Source of the DNA: Dehalococcoidia bacterium
Lineage (GTDB): Bacteria; Chloroflexota; Dehalococcoidia; Lucifugimonadales; UBA1127
DNA: 62,327 bases
Assembly (NCBI GenBank): GCA_029936935.1
Contig: JAPYRQ010000003.1
Span: 1 to 62,327 of the forward strand
Direction of reading: 5' to 3'
Below are positions 586 through 29,751 of the stretch, in pieces (positions within the stretch are counted from its first letter, which is position 1; every line of letters begins with the position of its first letter). A program made the translations under genes and the position numbers. The notes beneath the pieces are model-generated. The model was not told where the DNA came from and searched no databases. It was given only the letters and a program-made list of their open reading frames with translations.

Positions 586-759
586 CGCACTCTCCTGAAA
601 CAGAATGGATTAGGGGGTTGGGATTGGCCTGCCACAGTATAGGGTCAGCGGCACAGTGTCGCAATCAGGAAGCTAGCTGCCTCGCGTAGCTGGGTATGCT
701 ATAGTGGTTTCCAGCCCGTTTTTACCTTGTGGTTACGTGGCTATGGGGAGGATAGTACC

Positions 760-2040
760 TTGCTTACACCAGAGGAAAACAAGCTTGTAACAGAGATTGG
801 TCCAGACACGCCCATGGGTGATCTCTTCCGTAGATTCTGGGTCCCTGTATTCCATGCCCGAGAGCTAGTTGATCCCGATGGTGCACCTGCTCGTACCAGG
901 TTACTGGGTGAGCACATTGTGGGGTTTCGAGACACCAGTGGGCGGCTTGGCATCCTTGAAGCGGCATGTCCGCATCGCGGCGTCGACCTCTCCTACGGCG
1001 TCAACGAGGAAAACGGCCTTCGCTGCGGCCGATGTGGCTGGAAGTTTGACGTAGAGGGCAACATCCTAGATATGCCCTACGAGCCTGATGCTGAAAGCCT
1101 GATGAAGACCATTAAGGCTGTGACATACGGCGTACAGGAGTGGGGCGGCCTCATCTGGGCTTATATGGGTCCGAAAGAGGAGTCCCCGGAACGTCCCGAG
1201 TTTGAGTGGGGTCAACTGCCGGAAGACCATCGATACATCTCCAAGTTCGTCCAGGAGTGCAACTACCTCCAGGGCCTTGAGGGTGGCATAGACAGTTCAC
1301 GCATCTCCTTCTTGTACGACATGCTCTTCGGTGACCCGCCGACGGTTGAGACTACTGCCGACCACCTGGTGCAGGGGATAGAAGGGACTCGTAAAAAAGA
1401 GAAATCCCAGTCCGTGTCAATCAAGACCACTGACTATGGCCTGATGGTCGCCGCTTCTATCGATGAAGGTCAGGAGACTAACGACTGGCAGGTCAACCAG
1501 TGGATGATGCCTTTCTACACCACTCCAAAGCCAGAAGGCGACGGATTGCTGGGCTGTCTGGCGTGGGTTCCCGTAGACGACAAGAACACGATGGTCTATG
1601 TCATTACCTACCACCCGAACAGGCCTATGACTGAAGAAGAGCTTGAGACCCGCAAGGCCGGAGGCGGTAACCACCCTGAACTCAATGAAGGCACATACAA
1701 GCGCAAACGCAACAAGGAAAACGGCTACATGATTGAGCGGAAAACCAGTGGGGCAAACCCCCTGGCCACAATCTCCAACGAGTTTGAACTGGCGTTGGTG
1801 CTAGAAGAGAGCATGGGCGCTATTGTCGATCGAACCAAAGAGCAGCTTGACCCCAACGACATTGCAATCATGGAAACGCGCAGGATACTGATGAAGTCCG
1901 CCATCGATCTGAGAGAGGGCACCGAGCCCGCTGCTGCCCACAACGGCGCTGCATACAACGTACGAGCGTCATCGCCTGTGTTGAAGCGGGATGCGTCCAT
2001 TGATCAGGTCGAGGACAAGCCCATTCCTGAACGCGAATAG
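760..2040 (+). CDS. Rieske oxygenase alpha-subunit paralog (phthalate 4,5-dioxygenase-like) with degenerate metal sites
   Basis: Colinear with the paralogs at 25153-29191; TTG start MLTPEEN after GGGGAGG; CPHRG...CGRCGW; IDSSRISFLY. Confidence 0.85.
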   Translation: MLTPEENKLVTEIGPDTPMGDLFRRFWVPVFHARELVDPDGAPARTRLLGEHIVGFRDTSGRLGILEAACPHRGVDLSYGVNEENGLRCGRCGWKFDVEGNILDMPYEPDAESLMKTIKAVTYGVQEWGGLIWAYMGPKEESPERPEFEWGQLPEDHRYISKFVQECNYLQGLEGGIDSSRISFLYDMLFGDPPTVETTADHLVQGIEGTRKKEKSQSVSIKTTDYGLMVAASIDEGQETNDWQVNQWMMPFYTTPKPEGDGLLGCLAWVPVDDKNTMVYVITYHPNRPMTEEELETRKAGGGNHPELNEGTYKRKRNKENGYMIERKTSGANPLATISNEFELALVLEESMGAIVDRTKEQLDPNDIAIMETRRILMKSAIDLREGTEPAAAHNGAAYNVRASSPVLKRDASIDQVEDKPIPERE

Positions 2041-2133: not shown

Positions 2134-3471
2134 ATGACCTCGGACAACAGCGTGCGGCCCAATACGCCCCACTTCTTCTACGGCTGGGTAGTCGTTGCCA
2201 CAGCATTCTTGGTCAACGTGGTTGCTGCTCCGATGAACGCTGTGGTTGTAGCCTTCTTCGTTGGCCCCTTAAGCGAGGATCTGGGTGTAAGCCGTAGTGC
2301 CATTGCGTGGGCTTTGACCTTCCGCATCGCCGTTGCAGGACTTACCGGCCCGTTCATGGGACCGCTCATAGACAAGCATGGCTCCCGGTGGTTGGGCGCC
2401 ATTGCCGGTGTGTATACGGGAGCCACTCTCATCGGCCTCTATTTTGTGGATAGTATCTGGATCCTTTACTTGATGTTCGGCCTTTCCGGACTTATGGGGT
2501 TCGGCGCCCCCGGCGGCAGCCTGCTCATCACAGTCCCTGTTGCCAAGTGGTTCGTCATTCGTAGAGGCCGCGCTATGGCGATTGCAACTGCTGGTGCGCC
2601 TTTGGGGACAGTGGCCGGGATTTTCATAGCCCAAGCCTTAATCCACAGCATCGGTTGGCGTGGAGCCTGGGTGGTGTTTGGCCTTGGCTTGTGGGCGGTC
2701 ATGGTGCCTTTATTTGCCGTCTTCATGCGAAGGACACCGGAAGACCTGGGCCTGAAGCCGGATGGAGCTGTTGAAGAGCCCTCCAGCGATAACGTATCGG
2801 TTGGAGGCCATGCGACTGTTTCTCAAGAGGTGGATTGGCCTCTGCGGACGGTATTGCGAACCCGGGTCATGTGGATGCTGGTAGTGGCCTTTGGAATCAA
2901 CCAGTTCGTGGGATCGGGCACGTTGCTGCACAGGGTTGGGTCATTTGAGGCTGACGGCCTGTCAGACGGCGTGATAAGTGTGGGTATCGCTGTTGAGCCC
3001 TTCACATTCCTTATTATGGCCCTGGTGTTCGGTATGGTCATTGAACGGGCTGTACCCCGGTTTATCGGTGCCCTGGGCCTCGCCTTCATGTCAATATCCA
3101 TCCTGCCCATGCTGTTCTTTGTGGATGGTCAGAACTACTTCATCTTCATCCATAGCATCATGTGGGGCATGGGAGCTGGGGCTGGCATGAACTTCATGAA
3201 TGTCGTTTGGCCCAGCTACTTCGGTCGGAAACACCTGGGGTCGATTCGGGGATTCATCCTGCCGATTACCATTCTGGCGGGGGGCCTTGGTGCGCCGATG
3301 TATGGCTACATCATCGATCACTGGGGCGGGTATTCCATGGCCTGGTCGATTACGCTTATTTCGATGAGTGTTTCTGGAACCCTCTACCTTTTTGCCAGTC
3401 CACCAAAACCCAAAGAGAGCGCAGCCCAGGAAGCAAGCGGTGAATCCGGGCAATCTACCCTTCTGGAGTAA
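2134..3471 (+). CDS. MFS transporter
   Basis: About 12 TM helices; motif A GPLIDKHGSR; FFYGWVVV N-terminus. Confidence 0.9.
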   Translation: MTSDNSVRPNTPHFFYGWVVVATAFLVNVVAAPMNAVVVAFFVGPLSEDLGVSRSAIAWALTFRIAVAGLTGPFMGPLIDKHGSRWLGAIAGVYTGATLIGLYFVDSIWILYLMFGLSGLMGFGAPGGSLLITVPVAKWFVIRRGRAMAIATAGAPLGTVAGIFIAQALIHSIGWRGAWVVFGLGLWAVMVPLFAVFMRRTPEDLGLKPDGAVEEPSSDNVSVGGHATVSQEVDWPLRTVLRTRVMWMLVVAFGINQFVGSGTLLHRVGSFEADGLSDGVISVGIAVEPFTFLIMALVFGMVIERAVPRFIGALGLAFMSISILPMLFFVDGQNYFIFIHSIMWGMGAGAGMNFMNVVWPSYFGRKHLGSIRGFILPITILAGGLGAPMYGYIIDHWGGYSMAWSITLISMSVSGTLYLFASPPKPKESAAQEASGESGQSTLLE

Positions 3472-24074: not shown

Positions 24075-25058
24075 ATGGCGAAGATTGTTTTAGGGATAGG
24101 GACATCGCACAGCCCACAGCTGAGCGTCCCCGGAGATTTGTGGGACACTTATGCGGAGCGCGACAAGCGTAACCCGGGCCTCTATCGCATTCCTGATGGG
24201 AAGCACGTCACCTATGAGGAGCTCTTGGATGAGCCCCATCCAGGCATTGAAAAGCAACTGACTTCTGAGGTCTTCCAGGCACGGCATGAGGCCAACCAGG
24301 CAGGCATCAGCAAACTGGCAGAAGTGATGGAGAAGGCAAACCCTGACGTGATTGTCATGTTTGGCGATGACCAGTCAGAGGTGTTCTCAGCGGACTTCAT
24401 GCCCGCCATGTGCGTCTTCTGGGGCGACACGGTGCCCTTCTCCCGACGCAGCTTTGGCAACCGCGATGCAGCCATGGAGGCCATTGACGGCTACTACAGC
24501 AGGCCTGAAAAGGAATATCCGGTGCACGCGAAACTCGGCAAGCACATCATCGAGTCTCTGAGCACGGACGATTTTGACATAATGCATGCCCGAACCATTG
24601 GCGAGGGCAAGTCCATCAGCCACGCGTTCGGTTTTGTTTGGAACAGGCTCATGGGCGACAAGATCACCCAGACGGTTCCCATTCACATCAACACGTACTT
24701 CTCGCCCAACCAGCCCACGCCACTCCGTAGCTGGGAGCTGGGTCAATCTGTCCGTAAGGCCGTTGAGTCCTGGGACAATGATTTGAGGGTCGCTGTCCTT
24801 GGTTCCGGTGGCTTCAGCCACTTCGTCGTCGACGAAGAAATCGACCAGAATTGCATCAAGGCTCTGGAGGGCAAGAACACCAAGGCCATCGGAGCGCTTC
24901 CGTTGGAGCGTTTGCAGTCCGGAACGTCAGAAGTCCGCAACTGGTTCGCCGCCGCAGGTGCAGCTGAAGAGCTGGATATGCACATGGTTGACTACGTTCC
25001 CTGCTACCGATCCGTTGCAGGTACCGGCTGCGCCATGGGCTTTGCGTACTGGTCTTAA
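24075..25058 (+). CDS. LigB-family extradiol ring-cleavage dioxygenase (protocatechuate/gallate-type)
   Basis: IGTSHSP, GDDQ, SHAFGF, INTYFSPNQP, SGGFSHF, SEVRNW. Confidence 0.88.
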   Translation: MAKIVLGIGTSHSPQLSVPGDLWDTYAERDKRNPGLYRIPDGKHVTYEELLDEPHPGIEKQLTSEVFQARHEANQAGISKLAEVMEKANPDVIVMFGDDQSEVFSADFMPAMCVFWGDTVPFSRRSFGNRDAAMEAIDGYYSRPEKEYPVHAKLGKHIIESLSTDDFDIMHARTIGEGKSISHAFGFVWNRLMGDKITQTVPIHINTYFSPNQPTPLRSWELGQSVRKAVESWDNDLRVAVLGSGGFSHFVVDEEIDQNCIKALEGKNTKAIGALPLERLQSGTSEVRNWFAAAGAAEELDMHMVDYVPCYRSVAGTGCAMGFAYWS

Positions 25059-25152: not shown

Positions 25153-26466
25153 ATGCTGACACAAACTGACAATGAATTACTAACCAAGACAGGACCCGGA
25201 ACTCCCATGGGGGAAGTGTTCCGGCGGTTTTGGCAGCCCGCACTCCTATCATCGGAGTTGCCCGCGCCTGACTGCGATCCCATTCGCCTTCGATTGCTTG
25301 GCGAGAACCTTGTGGCCTATCGCGACACCAACGGAGACGTTGGCGTGATGGACTTCTACTGCCCGCATCGCCGCGCGGGTATGTTCTTCGGTCGAAACGA
25401 AGAGTGCGGACTTCGCTGCGTATACCACGGCTGGAAGTTCGACAAGGACGGCAACTGCACGGACATGCCGTCAGAGCCGGCAGAGAGCAATTTCAAGGAC
25501 AAGGTGAAAATCACGGCGTATCCGGCCGAAGAGGCTGGCGACGTCGTCTGGATTTACATGGGGCCTGCTGAGAGCAAGCCTGCTTTGCCCGATTTTGAAT
25601 GGACCAAGGTGCCTTCTGAGAACCGTGTGGTGACTCGCTGGATTCAGCAGTCCAACTGCATGCAGGCTGCGGAAGGCGAGATCGACACGTCTCACGTGTC
25701 CTTCAACCACCGTTGGTTCAACATGAAGAACGCACCGGATTCCGTTAAGTCCCTCCCACGTCGTGAGAACAAAGACGGTAAGCAACTGAACCTCATGGAC
25801 GGCGCGCCACACCTGACCGTGAATGAGACCAACTACGGTTTCACCTATGGCTCACGTCGCGCAGTTGAGGATGAGGGGTACTACTGGCGCATAACCCAGT
25901 TCCTTCTGCCCATGTACAGCCTGATTCCCAGCCCTGACTGGCCCCGTGGCGGCCGAGGTTGGGTGCCGATTGATGATGAGAATATCTCCGTCATTCAGTA
26001 CTCCTACAATGCCGAACGACCTTTCACCAAGCTAGAGCGTGAGCACAGGAGATCCAGCCCCGAAGGACTGAAGTATGGCAAGTTCACCCTTGATGACGGC
26101 TACATCATTGACACCTTCATTCCGGCCCGACTGCCGGAGAACGACTACCTCATTGACCGCGAAATGCAGCGTAATGACAACTACACAGGCATCGCTAGCG
26201 GACGCGAGCAGGATATGGCTATGACGGATACCATGGGCGCCGTCGCCGACCGCACCAAGGAGCACCTTGGCACAAGCGACACCGCGATCATCGCAGCCCG
26301 CAGAATTCTTCTTAAGCTGGCTCGAGACCTCCAGGAAGGCACGGAGCCATACGCACCACAGCACCCGGAAGTCTTTGCGGTGCGCGCCATCGACGTAGTC
26401 GACCATGAGGGCGACTTCGACAAGCTCATGGTAGAGCACTCAGCACTCTCGAAGACTACGTTTTAG
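25153..26466 (+). CDS. Rieske aromatic oxygenase alpha subunit (phthalate 4,5-dioxygenase/LigX-like)
   Basis: CPHRR...CVYHGW; IDTSHVSFNH; EQDMAM. Confidence 0.93.
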   Translation: MLTQTDNELLTKTGPGTPMGEVFRRFWQPALLSSELPAPDCDPIRLRLLGENLVAYRDTNGDVGVMDFYCPHRRAGMFFGRNEECGLRCVYHGWKFDKDGNCTDMPSEPAESNFKDKVKITAYPAEEAGDVVWIYMGPAESKPALPDFEWTKVPSENRVVTRWIQQSNCMQAAEGEIDTSHVSFNHRWFNMKNAPDSVKSLPRRENKDGKQLNLMDGAPHLTVNETNYGFTYGSRRAVEDEGYYWRITQFLLPMYSLIPSPDWPRGGRGWVPIDDENISVIQYSYNAERPFTKLEREHRRSSPEGLKYGKFTLDDGYIIDTFIPARLPENDYLIDREMQRNDNYTGIASGREQDMAMTDTMGAVADRTKEHLGTSDTAIIAARRILLKLARDLQEGTEPYAPQHPEVFAVRAIDVVDHEGDFDKLMVEHSALSKTTF

Positions 26467-26540
26467 GTTCGACAAACTTCGAAGCCAATAATGCCCTACC
26501 CAAAGAGGTACGGCGGGAGAACAAGGAAAGAAGGGAAAAC

Positions 26541-27827
26541 ATGCTGACACAAGCAGACAACGAGATAGTCACGCGAACCGGTCCCGGCACGCCCATGGGT
26601 GAGCTGTTCCGGCGGTTCTGGCAACCAGTGTTGCTATCGTCAGACCTGCCTGATAACGATGGTGACCCACAGCGAATAAAGGTGTTGGGTGAGAACCTTG
26701 TCGCCTATCGCGACACCAACGGCGACGTTGGCGTGATGAACTTCTACTGCCCGCATCGCCGCGCGGGTATGTTCTTCGGTCGAAACGAAGAGTGCGGACT
26801 CCGCTGTGTGTACCACGGCTGGAAGTTTGATAAGGACGGCAACTGCACGGATATGCCGTCAGAGCCCGCCGAGAGCAACTTCAAGGGCAAGGTGAAAATC
26901 ACCGCATATCCAGCCAAAGAGGCTGGCACGGTGGTCTGGATCTACATGGGGCCCAAGGAGCTTCAGCCGGAGTTACCGCAGTTTGAGTGGTGCACGGTTC
27001 CCGAGGGTCACGTGGTAGTGACTCGCTGGCTCCAGCAGTCCAACTACCTTCAGGCCATGGAAGGCGAGATTGATACGTCCCACGTCTCCTTCAACCATCG
27101 CTGGTTTGACCTGGACCCCGCACCTGCCACCATTGCCATTCTCAACAGGATGGCAGGGGACGGTTCCCCTCGCCTCACGGTGCGGGAGAACGATTCAGGC
27201 TTCATCTACGGTTCACGCCGGGACTATGACAACCAGTACTACTGGCGCTGCACCCAGTTGATGGTGCCCATGTACAGCCTTATCCCTGGCAACCAGTGGC
27301 CCCGTGGCGGACGCGGGTGGGTTCCTGTGGACGACGAGACCAACATGGTCTTCCAGTACGCCTCTAACCCGGACCGACCTCTCACAGAGGAAGAGATACA
27401 CCTGCGCAAGACCCAGAGCCCGCAGAATCTTCACAAGGTGAAGCATACGTTGTCTGACGGCTACGTCATCGATACCTGGATCCCTGAACGGACACCGCAG
27501 AACGACTACAACATCGATCGCGAGATGCAGCGCACGACGAACTACGTTGGCATCCCAAGCACTCGTGAACAGGACATGGCTATGACGGACAGCATGGGCG
27601 CCATTGCCGACCGCACCAAGGAGCACCTGGGCACCAGTGATACGGCCATCATTGCCGGCCGTCAGTTGTTGCTCAAGCTGGCTCGTGACCTTCAAGAAGG
27701 CCAGGAGCCTTACGCGGCACAGCACCCGGAGGTCTTTGCCGTCAGAGCCATCAACATTGTGGACCCGGAGCCTGACTTCGATAACCTTCTTAAGAAGCAC
27801 GGAGATATGGGCAAGGTCAACGCATAA
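26541..27827 (+). CDS. Rieske aromatic oxygenase alpha subunit (close paralog of the previous gene)
   Basis: CPHRR...CVYHGW; IDTSHVSFNH; EQDMAM. Confidence 0.93.
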   Translation: MLTQADNEIVTRTGPGTPMGELFRRFWQPVLLSSDLPDNDGDPQRIKVLGENLVAYRDTNGDVGVMNFYCPHRRAGMFFGRNEECGLRCVYHGWKFDKDGNCTDMPSEPAESNFKGKVKITAYPAKEAGTVVWIYMGPKELQPELPQFEWCTVPEGHVVVTRWLQQSNYLQAMEGEIDTSHVSFNHRWFDLDPAPATIAILNRMAGDGSPRLTVRENDSGFIYGSRRDYDNQYYWRCTQLMVPMYSLIPGNQWPRGGRGWVPVDDETNMVFQYASNPDRPLTEEEIHLRKTQSPQNLHKVKHTLSDGYVIDTWIPERTPQNDYNIDREMQRTTNYVGIPSTREQDMAMTDSMGAIADRTKEHLGTSDTAIIAGRQLLLKLARDLQEGQEPYAAQHPEVFAVRAINIVDPEPDFDNLLKKHGDMGKVNA

Positions 27828-27883
27828 ACCGTATTTGGATCAAGTTTCCCAGGGGAGGGAAAACTTAACCAAAGGAGAGAACA

Positions 27884-29191
27884 ATGCTGACACCAGAAGA
27901 GAATGATCTGATTTGTAGGACTGATAAGGGCACCCCCATGGGAGAGGTCATGCGCCGATACTGGCAGCCTTTCCTGATCTCTGATGAGCTTCCAGATCCG
28001 GACTGTGACGCCATACGTGTTCGGTTGTTGGGCGAGCAGCTTGTCGCGTTCCGTGACACCAATGGGGTCGTAGGCCTCGTCGCTGACGCTTGCCCACATC
28101 GGGGCGCGTCAATGTTCTTCGGCATCAACCAGGAATGTGGCCTGATGTGTATCTACCACGGATGGAAGTTTGATGTGAACGGTGAATGCACAGACATGCC
28201 TTCAGACCTGCCCGGAAGCGGTTTCAAGGACAAGGTAAGAATTGAGGCCTATCCCTGCATTGAGTCGGCAGGCGTCATCTGGACCTACATGGGGCCCAAA
28301 GAGAAGGAGCCCCCGCACCCCAACTTCATCTTCAACAACCTCCCCCAAGAGAACGTGCATGCATTCCGTGTCCCCATCTACTGCAACTGGTTGCAGAGCA
28401 TGGAAGGGAACATTGACTCCACCCACCTGGGCACGCTCCACGTGGACTACCAGGATATGCACCCGGTGGACCTGGAGTATGACAAGCCGGACACTTACCC
28501 TTCCGGGGCATTTGTCCGATACAACCTAGCCAAGTACCGTTACGCCCGCATCGATGTGCAGGATACCTCCTATGGGTATCGACTCATCGCGTCACGGCCA
28601 ACGGACAACGGCAACCAGCACGTCCGCACTAACTGCCACGTGCTGCCCTACAGCACCTTCATTGCATCCCCGGGCAAGGGTGGCTCCGTTTTGATTCACC
28701 CGCCCACGGACGATGAGAACTGCTACCGCATCGGCATCCAGTTCCGGACGGACAGGCCAATCACCGGACAGGAGCGCCGAACCATCACCATGGCTGGGAC
28801 ATACATGGAGAGTGATGGCAAGACTCGCAAGAACCGTGAAGAGAATGACTTCAACGTGGACCGCTGGGCACAGAAGAACACCATCCTGTCCGGCATCTGG
28901 CCTTTCGCAGACCAGGACTACGCCATCATTGAGACGATGGGCAAGATCTTTGACCGGACCAAAGAGCACCTCTATCAGGGTGACCAGGCCATCATTAGGA
29001 ACAGGCAACAACTGTTGAAGATGGCCATGGACATCCAGGAGGGCATAGACCCGCCAGGAACGGGGAACAACAACGACATTCCTCACCACCTGATCCACTC
29101 CGTGGAGAAGATCATTGGGCCTGACGACGATCCGTGGTTCTTGGAAGCGGACGCAGGAGAAACGACTGAAAAGGGTCAACGTACCCGCTAG
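27884..29191 (+). CDS. Rieske aromatic oxygenase alpha subunit
   Basis: CPHRG...CIYHGW; IDSTHLGTLH; DQDYAI. Confidence 0.93.
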   Translation: MLTPEENDLICRTDKGTPMGEVMRRYWQPFLISDELPDPDCDAIRVRLLGEQLVAFRDTNGVVGLVADACPHRGASMFFGINQECGLMCIYHGWKFDVNGECTDMPSDLPGSGFKDKVRIEAYPCIESAGVIWTYMGPKEKEPPHPNFIFNNLPQENVHAFRVPIYCNWLQSMEGNIDSTHLGTLHVDYQDMHPVDLEYDKPDTYPSGAFVRYNLAKYRYARIDVQDTSYGYRLIASRPTDNGNQHVRTNCHVLPYSTFIASPGKGGSVLIHPPTDDENCYRIGIQFRTDRPITGQERRTITMAGTYMESDGKTRKNREENDFNVDRWAQKNTILSGIWPFADQDYAIIETMGKIFDRTKEHLYQGDQAIIRNRQQLLKMAMDIQEGIDPPGTGNNNDIPHHLIHSVEKIIGPDDDPWFLEADAGETTEKGQRTR

Positions 29192-29289: not shown

Positions 29290-29751
29290 ATGGCAGTACA
29301 GGCCTTTGCTCAAGAGCAACATATGAAGATTAGTGAGTATCTGAGGGCCGAGCACAAGACCATTAGTGAGGATGTCTGGCGTCTTGAACAACAACTTGAG
29401 ATTGGCAGCCTCTCCATTACTGATGTGAAACTTACAGTCCGCACCATTGCCGCCGCATTGGAAAACCACGCCAAGCTGGAAGAGAAGGTTCTGTTCCCTG
29501 CGTTGGAGCATGCCCTGGGCCGTGATGATGGCCCGTTGGCCGTCATGGAAGCCGAGCACAGTCGAATCGCCGCACTGTTCAGTCGTATCGATGGCGCTCG
29601 TGATGAGGACAACGTGCCCATGCTTACTAAAGAACTCACAGGGATGCTACTGAACCATTTTTCCAAGGAAGAAAGTGACCTGTTCCCGAAGGCAGACGAG
29701 CTTCTAGGCACGGTGGAGATTGATGAGTCGGGTTCAGTTCAGCTTGTGTAG
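29290..29751 (+). CDS. Hemerythrin (HHE) domain protein
   Basis: AEH...HAKLEEKVLFP...MEAEH...HFSKEESDLFP. Confidence 0.88.
   Translation: MAVQAFAQEQHMKISEYLRAEHKTISEDVWRLEQQLEIGSLSITDVKLTVRTIAAALENHAKLEEKVLFPALEHALGRDDGPLAVMEAEHSRIAALFSRIDGARDEDNVPMLTKELTGMLLNHFSKEESDLFPKADELLGTVEIDESGSVQLV

Follow-up and report, generated by a model that had tools for sequence, protein, structure and literature searches.

The gene at positions 760-2040 of a 62,327-nt stretch of DNA from a marine SAR202-type Dehalococcoidia bacterium (GenBank assembly GCA_029936935.1, contig JAPYRQ010000003.1, positions 1-62,327; hereafter, the window) encodes a full-length homolog of the alpha subunits of LigXa_C/phthalate-type Rieske oxygenases. 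Rieske oxygenases are defined by a Cys2His2 cluster and a 2-His-1-carboxylate iron, which are wired together via a bridging Asp. In the window protein, all three ligands of the mononuclear iron are replaced, and the requirements for O2 activation are therefore absent. In SAR202-type Dehalococcoidia, the gene is one of an old, single-copy group of orthologs that descended from phthalate/isophthalate-type (LigXa_C) Rieske oxygenase alpha subunits, and it is under purifying selection. These results show that the product is a selected, functional protein without known Rieske-oxygenase chemistry, i.e., a selected non-oxygenase offshoot of the aromatic-ring dioxygenase family.

The members of this conserved clade have swapped the His-Asp-His wire for Cys-Asp-Arg and dropped the iron, with the fold and the single copy kept. 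For bioinorganic chemistry, this is a putative natural Cys3His site on a Rieske fold; for enzymology, it shows the use of the oxygenase scaffold without O2 chemistry. In the full-text literature outside subscription journals and supplementary files, we found no report of a natural relative of Rieske oxygenases that carries a Cys3His ligand set, and the accessible parts of a 2025 review of Rieske oxygenases and of a 2024 review of Fe-S proteins give the Cys-X-His...Cys-X2-His motif only.

Ligand residues and the clade that shares them

The window protein was aligned to three paralogs encoded in the same window (25153-29191; 37, 41, and 34% identity). The substitutions listed in a preliminary description of the window, made from the letters alone, are all present in this alignment: the second ligand loop changes from CVYHGW or CIYHGW in the paralogs to CGRCGW, the iron motif from EGEIDTSHVSFNH to EGGIDSSRISFLY (R181, Y186), and EQDMAM to ELALVL (A345). 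The Rieske ligand set is 3Cys-1His and the catalytic-iron ligands are gone (R181, Y186, and A345 in their place), as had been proposed. Based on the properties that define canonical enzymes, the window protein retains an N-terminal Rieske-fold domain, a C-terminal catalytic domain of the LigXa_C/helix-grip type, and the bridging Asp, but contains neither the C-x-H...C-x-x-H motif nor the 2-His-1-carboxylate triad. A rubredoxin or zinc-ribbon arrangement with two CxxC-type knuckles is also absent, the second loop being CxxC and the first C-x-H. The Pfam scan of the window protein returned Rieske and LigXa_C alone, with no CDGSH or Rrf2 fold.

To place these changes, homologs were collected with a word-indexed protein search (2042 matches at E ≤1e-10, of which the best 120 were listed) and an exhaustive search of representatives (10410 matches at E ≤0.001, best 150 listed). 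Together with the window protein and its three paralogs, the 243 listed proteins of at least 360 aa gave an alignment of 246 rows after one identical entry was dropped. Among the matches listed, 78 of the 246 rows share the state C-H-C-C, D178, R181, non-His186, and non-Asp345, whereas 147 rows are fully canonical and the other 21 are mostly gapped or off at one position. Position 92 is Cys in all 78 clade rows and His in all 147 canonical rows; position 345 is Asp in every canonical row and Ala in 72 of the clade rows (the rest being Ser, Thr, or Ile). The putative metal ligands Cys70, His72, Cys89, and Cys92 are present and invariant throughout the clade. In the former iron motif, the Glu and the bridging Asp (E174 and D178) are retained in 78/78 clade rows, an invariant Arg stands in place of the first iron His, and the second has given way to a variable residue. 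The two canonical partners of D178, the Rieske His and the iron His of the adjacent subunit, are thus both replaced. Glu343, close to the lost iron Asp, is present in 78/78 clade rows and invariant in the clade only.

The preliminary description had gone further on two points, each of which stands in part. It held that the whole electron-transfer and catalytic path was lost together; the Rieske His and the three iron ligands are indeed replaced, but D178 and E174 are kept in every clade row, so that the path is not wholly erased. It also stated that each change involves several nucleotides, which at the level of single residues applies to His-to-Cys (two), whereas His-to-Arg, His-to-Tyr, and Asp-to-Ala need one each.

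In a FastTree phylogeny, the 78 clade rows form one side of a single branch (support 87), i.e., the ligand state changed once. An IQ-TREE analysis (LG+C20) of 24 clade and 42 canonical rows, hand-picked or random, likewise separated the clade rows by a single branch (SH-aLRT 100); the chimeras P0063 and P0079 (see below) and other rows were omitted from it. The clade comprises two deep subclades with 43-50% identity between them and the same ligand state throughout. Subclade A (23 rows; motif ELALVLEE) is 71-100% identical to the window protein, and subclade B (55 rows; mostly FEMALACQE) is 42-50% identical. A second search, started from a deep-branching member, added 57 new homologs, 12 of which have the clade state (one is a fragment without the Rieske loops); none of the 57 has a partial ligand state. 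The ligand changes are therefore coupled in 90/90 clade members (78 + 12), and the expectation that orthologs would conserve CxxC and lose His/His/Asp was borne out in the 78 rows and in the 12 further members. The homologs are annotated as Dehalococcoidia, Chloroflexota, or SAR202 cluster.

Two entries that combine both states were rejected as evolutionary intermediates. P0063, on a single 2.5-kb contig, is a false INTERMEDIATES: it combines CxxC with an unchanged His/His/Asp and came out as the sister of the clade, but it matches the window protein at 95-98% identity over some 130 N-terminal residues and at only 20-45% thereafter, indicating a chimeric entry. P0079, with canonical ligands and ELALVL, is the reverse chimera and mirrors P0063. 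Because both are chimeric, no true intermediate was found. Mis-assembly of metagenomes across stretches conserved in a highly paralogous family is the probable origin of both, and chimeras of this type are a trap for surveys of ligand states.

Selection, copy number and distribution

Using the Nei-Gojobori method, dN/dS was 0.03-0.24 in all 45 pairs of orthologous genes, although pairs with dS >1 are saturated. The unsaturated values are 0.028 (window vs. L007; dS 0.32), 0.082 (L005 vs. L006), 0.096 (L003 vs. L009), and 0.21 (L002 vs. L004). Purifying selection is evident, and the dN/dS near 1 that the preliminary description would have taken as a sign of decay is not seen. The reading frame is intact in all 43 clade genes read. 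At the replaced positions, codons vary among 39 distinct genes: Cys92 is encoded by TGT in 7 and TGC in 32, and Arg181 by CGC, CGT, CGA, CGG, or AGG. This synonymous turnover shows that the replaced residues themselves are maintained. The loss of every catalytic-iron ligand could suggest a functionless, decaying or recently inactivated paralog, but that explanation is excluded by the intact frames, the dN/dS values, the two deep subclades with one ligand state, and the codon turnover. Furthermore, the clade protein has diverged less between genomes than two neighbouring canonical paralogs: in three genomes, the orthologs of the window protein share 84, 73, and 73% identity with it, whereas the best matches of those paralogs there reach 63-69% (two comparators only).

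The clade has a distinct residue signature. Ten residues are clade-specific (in ≥90% of clade rows and ≤15% of canonical rows), namely D76, S78, C92, R181, V219, R315, A345, N366, T388, and G396, and six that are conserved in canonical proteins are lost in the clade (R81, H186, R234, R244, D326, and G337). Besides the four putative metal ligands, E174, D178, R181, F252, Y253, W269, H305, R315, E343, and E350 are invariant in 78/78 rows. The clade has preserved the two-domain fold, the interface helix (N168, Q171, E174, D178), and the first Rieske loop. Within the protein, conservation is strongest in the Rieske domain (entropy 0.95, compared to 1.21 in the catalytic domain). Position 244 is Arg in 133/147 canonical rows but in only 2/78 clade rows, and is Gln in the window protein. 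By alignment to the PDB sequence, it corresponds to R234 of isophthalate dioxygenase (IPDO), which, in the available part of the structural report, forms a salt bridge to the substrate carboxylate in the crystal and is equivalent to R244 of phthalate dioxygenase (PDO) (PMC12445078). The loss of this Arg implies that the carboxylate substrate anchor of the family is gone in the clade.

The assembly to which the window belongs, as contig C97, measures 2.05 Mb (G000; 94.6% complete) and is rich in oxygenase genes. A protein search found 65 family matches in this genome, with 63 open reading frames (ORFs) of at least 300 aa at E ≤1e-20. Of the 63, 61 have the canonical residue at each of the eight positions (C, H, C, H, D, H, H, D), and the Cys/Arg/Ala state occurs in the window gene alone, a pattern that chance does not explain. 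One further paralog is odd in another way (C21:4430-5656; L119:859-2226): it has CVYDGW, with Asp as the second Rieske ligand, keeps both iron His, and has Asn in place of the iron Asp (TQNQAV). Many paralogs in G000 lie in tandem, e.g., five to six in a row on C87:17101-27185. The window itself contains three canonical oxygenase genes in tandem (25153-26466, 26541-27827, and 27884-29191), preceded by an ORF at 24075-25058 (327 aa) and followed by another at 29290-29751 (153 aa). The number of paralogs fits the published expansions of ring-hydroxylating dioxygenases in some SAR202 groups, with up to 62 copies (PMC6946804, in the part available), and the same part of that source does not mention the variant.

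Five genomes reached via subclade-A loci each contain one clade member (655-672 bits) together with 50-66 other members of the family whose scores, ≤449 bits, lie in the canonical range. In a sample of the class, 8 of 401 genomes have a match at E ≤1e-145, one each. These carriers are the window genome and seven of the nine genomes of the sister family in the same order, all seven of subclade-B type. In a phylum sample (401 genomes, 4 candidates scored per genome), all 29 foreign loci returned were canonical; one of these loci is from the unpublished genome G038, on which no conclusion depends. Because only 4 candidates per genome were scored there, five oxygenase-rich genomes were rescored more deeply (all candidates in four of them [59, 149, 112, and 142], and 150 of 188 in G095). 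No clade member was found in G380, a sister-family genome (96% complete) in which all 59 candidates were scored, or in four genomes from other Chloroflexota families that are likewise rich in oxygenases (112-188 candidates). Across the samples covered, the clade is restricted to the order of the window genome.

Reading frame, gene neighbourhood and redox partners

The coordinates of the gene and its features are given in Table 1. The open frame on the plus strand spans 727 to 2040, with a second in-frame TTG at 727; however, nine orthologs from other genomes share the N-terminus [M/V]LTPEENK, which favours the start at 760. The intact, full-length ORF with a ribosome-binding site that had been noted previously is confirmed. 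A further scan gave the same coordinates for the Rieske domain of the window protein, whose score of 54.3 bits is lower than in any other full-length oxygenase-like ORF (>400 aa) of this genome. An NCBIfam scan of the protein gave no family above cut-off (matches were far below threshold), an ESM Atlas search returned generic Rieske/LigXa clusters and nothing else, and a scan for promoters and terminators found no more sites than in shuffled sequence.

Table 1. Positions of the window gene, its domains and ligand motifs, and of small Rieske-type ORFs elsewhere in the same genome.
Feature	Position	Strand	Remarks
Coding sequence	760-2040	+	TTG start, 426 aa, TAG at 2038-2040; Rieske oxygenase alpha-subunit homolog without catalytic-iron ligands
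Shine-Dalgarno-like GGGGAGG	745-751	+	8 nt 5' of the TTG start; read from sequence
Rieske-fold domain, residues 27-110	838-1089	+	PF00355, E 1.8e-13
First ligand loop, Cys70-Pro-His72	967-975	+	Canonical; invariant in clade and canonical relatives; CPHRG kept
Second ligand loop, Cys89-Gly-Arg-Cys92	1024-1035	+	Cys92 in place of the second Rieske His
LigXa_C-type catalytic-domain homolog, residues 134-391	1159-1932	+	PF19301, E 9.5e-24; full-length Foldseek match to 9INA/7V25
Former iron motif, E174-x3-D178-x2-R181-x4-Y186	1279-1317	+	Canonical form E-x3-D-x2-H-x4-H
Arg315	1702-1704	+	Invariant and clade-specific; Arg in 78/78 clade rows; canonical rows Pro (66), Thr (17) or gap
Glu343-Leu-Ala345	1786-1794	+	Ala in place of the iron-binding Asp
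Rieske-ferredoxin-like ORF	C86:2056-2316		
Rieske-ferredoxin-like ORF	C15:4808-5065		
Rieske-ferredoxin-like ORF	C15:5157-5414		
Rieske-ferredoxin-like ORF	C95:3465-3704		
Rieske-ferredoxin-like ORF	C24:8709-8951		
Rieske-ferredoxin-like ORF	C79:2946-3209		

Upstream of the window gene, a divergent ornithine cyclodeaminase/mu-crystallin family gene on the minus strand (1-585) is truncated at the window end; 94 nt downstream and on the same strand lies a gene for an MFS transporter (2134-3471, plus strand). Apart from the window, only the two closest relatives have this transporter gene at that place. In subclade A, a convergent recF-type gene adjoins the clade gene in 6/9 loci (ORF calls at these loci are crude, and some recF genes were probably missed) and pyruvate phosphate dikinase occurs in 8/9. 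A short-chain dehydrogenase cluster occurs in 10 of the 19 subclade-B loci, in 8 of them immediately downstream and on the same strand, with Amidohydrolase_2 (7 loci) or alpha/beta hydrolase genes (6 loci) beyond it. Farther out are radical-SAM genes (12 loci) and CofD and CofC (4 loci each). In L059, L060, L063, L064, and L069-L071, two radical-SAM ORFs and then CofD and CofC homologs are found downstream of the subclade-B gene, a run that looks like a coenzyme F420 biosynthesis cluster.

Across the 9 subclade-A and 19 subclade-B loci, the conserved neighbours include no reductase, ferredoxin, or canonical oxygenase gene. In L116 (G606:C31), a canonical-type Rieske oxygenase ORF (CSYHGW, 526-aa frame) adjoins the subclade-B gene on the opposite strand, the sole such adjacency. 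No phthalate-dioxygenase-reductase-type gene was recognised in G000: the search for reductase parts gave one NAD_binding_1 match (C75:4893-5231) and four Fer2 matches, the one on C28 being SdhB, and none of them is near the window gene. The genome also encodes six small Rieske-ferredoxin-like ORFs (107-135 aa; Table 1), and the ~61 oxygenases may therefore share a few ferredoxin-type donors.

With regard to expression, contigs from three seawater metatranscriptome runs cover positions 745-1779 at 90-96% identity and represent the ortholog of a relative. Their differences from the window are mostly at third codon positions. Such contigs are absent over 600-744 and 1788-2200, and the uncovered part is no evidence either way. 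The preliminary description had named lack of expression as a point that would overturn its reading, and the coverage of the ORF by RNA-library contigs of a close relative speaks, as weak evidence, for the opposite.

Candidate functions and closest known systems

The function we favour, at roughly even chances and judged from the sequence, is that of a non-oxygenase Rieske homolog with a Cys3His [2Fe-2S] cluster and a standalone redox or sensing role. Cys70, His72, Cys89, and Cys92 would still hold a [2Fe-2S] cluster with three Cys and one His; this is assumed because the first loop and the Rieske signature (P71, R73, W94) have not changed and constraint on the protein is strongest in this domain. 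The head-to-tail assembly of alpha3 oxygenases would be retained, with Arg181 filling the vacated iron site beside Asp178 and facing Cys92 of the adjacent subunit, and a Cys...Arg/Asp contact would take the place of the His-Asp-His wire. A His without an Asp partner would be unfavourable beside Arg, and a thiolate would be tolerated; such a contact would account for the strict coupling of the changes in all 90 members. The protein may be a redox-active, non-catalytic Fe-S protein that carries electrons or senses redox state or a ligand in connection with an oxygenase-rich lifestyle, and would not be the operon-encoded partner of any single oxygenase.

Several observations weigh against this proposal. 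Within the order, the carriers are eight of the nine genomes with 50-90 first-look candidates compared to none of the 17 listed genomes with ≤8; these genomes are kin and the comparison is not a statistical test, but presence only in the oxygenase-rich genomes of the order fits an oxygenase-linked role, possibly with physical association. Positions aligned with the substrate contacts of IPDO are not extra conserved (entropy 1.47 vs. a clade mean of 1.18), and a defined ligand pocket is therefore not demonstrated. Many members have a second loop of the form C-P-x-C-G, which we take to resemble a rubredoxin or zinc knuckle and which would allow a single-metal site. Finally, the RNA-library contigs are compatible with transcription but remain weak evidence, DNA carry-over being possible.

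The C-P-x-C-G loop leads to the idea of a mononuclear Cys3His Zn or Fe site of purely structural value in a redox-inert binding or scaffold protein, which we regard as unlikely. The consensus C-[PGA]-[RQ]-C-[GYF]-W, with CPRCGW in many orthologs, is compatible with such a site, and without a catalytic iron the obvious electron acceptor is missing. However, the Rieske-specific C-x-H spacing is kept with Pro71, Arg73, and Trp94 as in cluster-binding relatives, conservation is highest in the Rieske domain, and engineered His-to-Cys Rieske ferredoxins keep their [2Fe-2S] cluster. More doubtful is a non-catalytic subunit that takes the place of one alpha in canonical-paralog trimers, which it would tune, stabilise, or silence. 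Interface residues (N168, Q171, E174, G175, D178) and the DRxxE motif are shared with canonical relatives, exactly one copy stands beside 50-66 canonical paralogs in 6 genomes, and within the order only oxygenase-rich genomes have it, yet this co-occurrence is perhaps mere descent from an expanded family. A canonical paralog is not a conserved neighbour in the 9 + 19 loci (L116 apart), and G380 and the four oxygenase-rich genomes of other families have no clade member among the candidates scored. Moreover, the catalytic domain has its own invariant R315, E343, and H305, none of which a filler subunit needs, and, given the established Rieske-oxygenase mechanism (PMC12445078), a Cys at the place of His92 cannot hydrogen-bond the bridging Asp of a neighbour. 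The preliminary description had offered such hetero-oligomers as the first of its options, beside a sensor and a 3Cys-1His Fe-S or Zn protein: its picture of an intact, selected protein without Rieske-oxygenase chemistry stands, whereas the hetero-oligomer option is weakened by the missing canonical neighbour, the oxygenase-rich genomes that lack the clade, and the invariant residues of the catalytic domain.

Those residues also raise a chance, which we consider slimmer again, of a new enzyme in which Arg181, Arg315, His305, Glu343, and Tyr253 would line a pocket for a non-oxygenase reaction on an anionic, probably aromatic compound, with the cluster serving as a structural element or an electron source. 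In line with this idea are ten invariant residues, of which seven fall in the catalytic domain and several are clade-specific, and the short-chain dehydrogenase (10/19), Amidohydrolase_2, and alpha/beta hydrolase genes near subclade-B members; however, these neighbours are not common to subclade A, such genes are frequent in these genomes, and the positions aligned with IPDO contacts are only moderately conserved. The most speculative proposal, by analogy, is a labile-cluster redox/iron sensor or cluster donor, similar to NEET proteins and IscR, that would serve the 50-65 Rieske oxygenase paralogs found in such small SAR202 genomes, with its iron site plugged by the invariant Arg.

The closest known systems were identified from both fold and sequence. 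An AlphaFold2 model built from a 149-row alignment has a mean pLDDT of 91.1 and a pTM of 0.90, with values below 50 at residues 208-211 only. In a Foldseek search, this model matched, over its full length, 9INA/9IOY (E 3e-42, TM 0.85), followed by 7V25/7FJL and 7FHR; 9INA is also the best PDB match by sequence (E 1.3e-81, residues 5-412), and 7FHR and 7FJL are matched as well. The 9INA/9IOY structures are those of the alpha3 IPDO from Comamonas testosteroni KF1, which shares with the window protein the Rieske + LigXa_C-type architecture, the C-x-H loop, and the bridging Asp (D174 in IPDO, D178 here). The two differ at the ligands H91, H177, H182, and D337 and at the anchor R234 of IPDO, where the window protein has C92, R181, Y186, A345, and Q244 (IPDO residues as given in the available part of PMC12445078). 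PDO-KF1 (7FJL, 7V25) and the Rieske oxygenase of Cupriavidus metallidurans CH34 (7FHR) belong to the same family (E 3.2e-64 and 8.2e-69; TM 0.80-0.84) and, unlike the window protein, are canonical. According to the same available text, PDO is an alpha3alpha3 hexamer, and the inter-subunit wire of canonical enzymes is His92-Asp178-His181 in window numbering (PMC12445078).

The ligand set predicted for the window protein, three Cys and one His, occurs naturally at the [2Fe-2S] clusters of NEET proteins and IscR. There, lability and proton coupling of the cluster are due to the single His and serve sensing or cluster transfer (PMC11138216 and PMC8463382, in the parts available), and by analogy a sensing or carrier role would be plausible here. 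Their CDGSH and Rrf2 folds are unrelated to the Rieske + LigXa_C fold of the window protein. A parallel on a Rieske fold is found in engineered His-to-Cys Rieske-type ferredoxins, which have a Cys3His ligand set and keep the [2Fe-2S] cluster; these are small laboratory mutants, whereas the window clade is natural, conserved, and built on an oxygenase scaffold.

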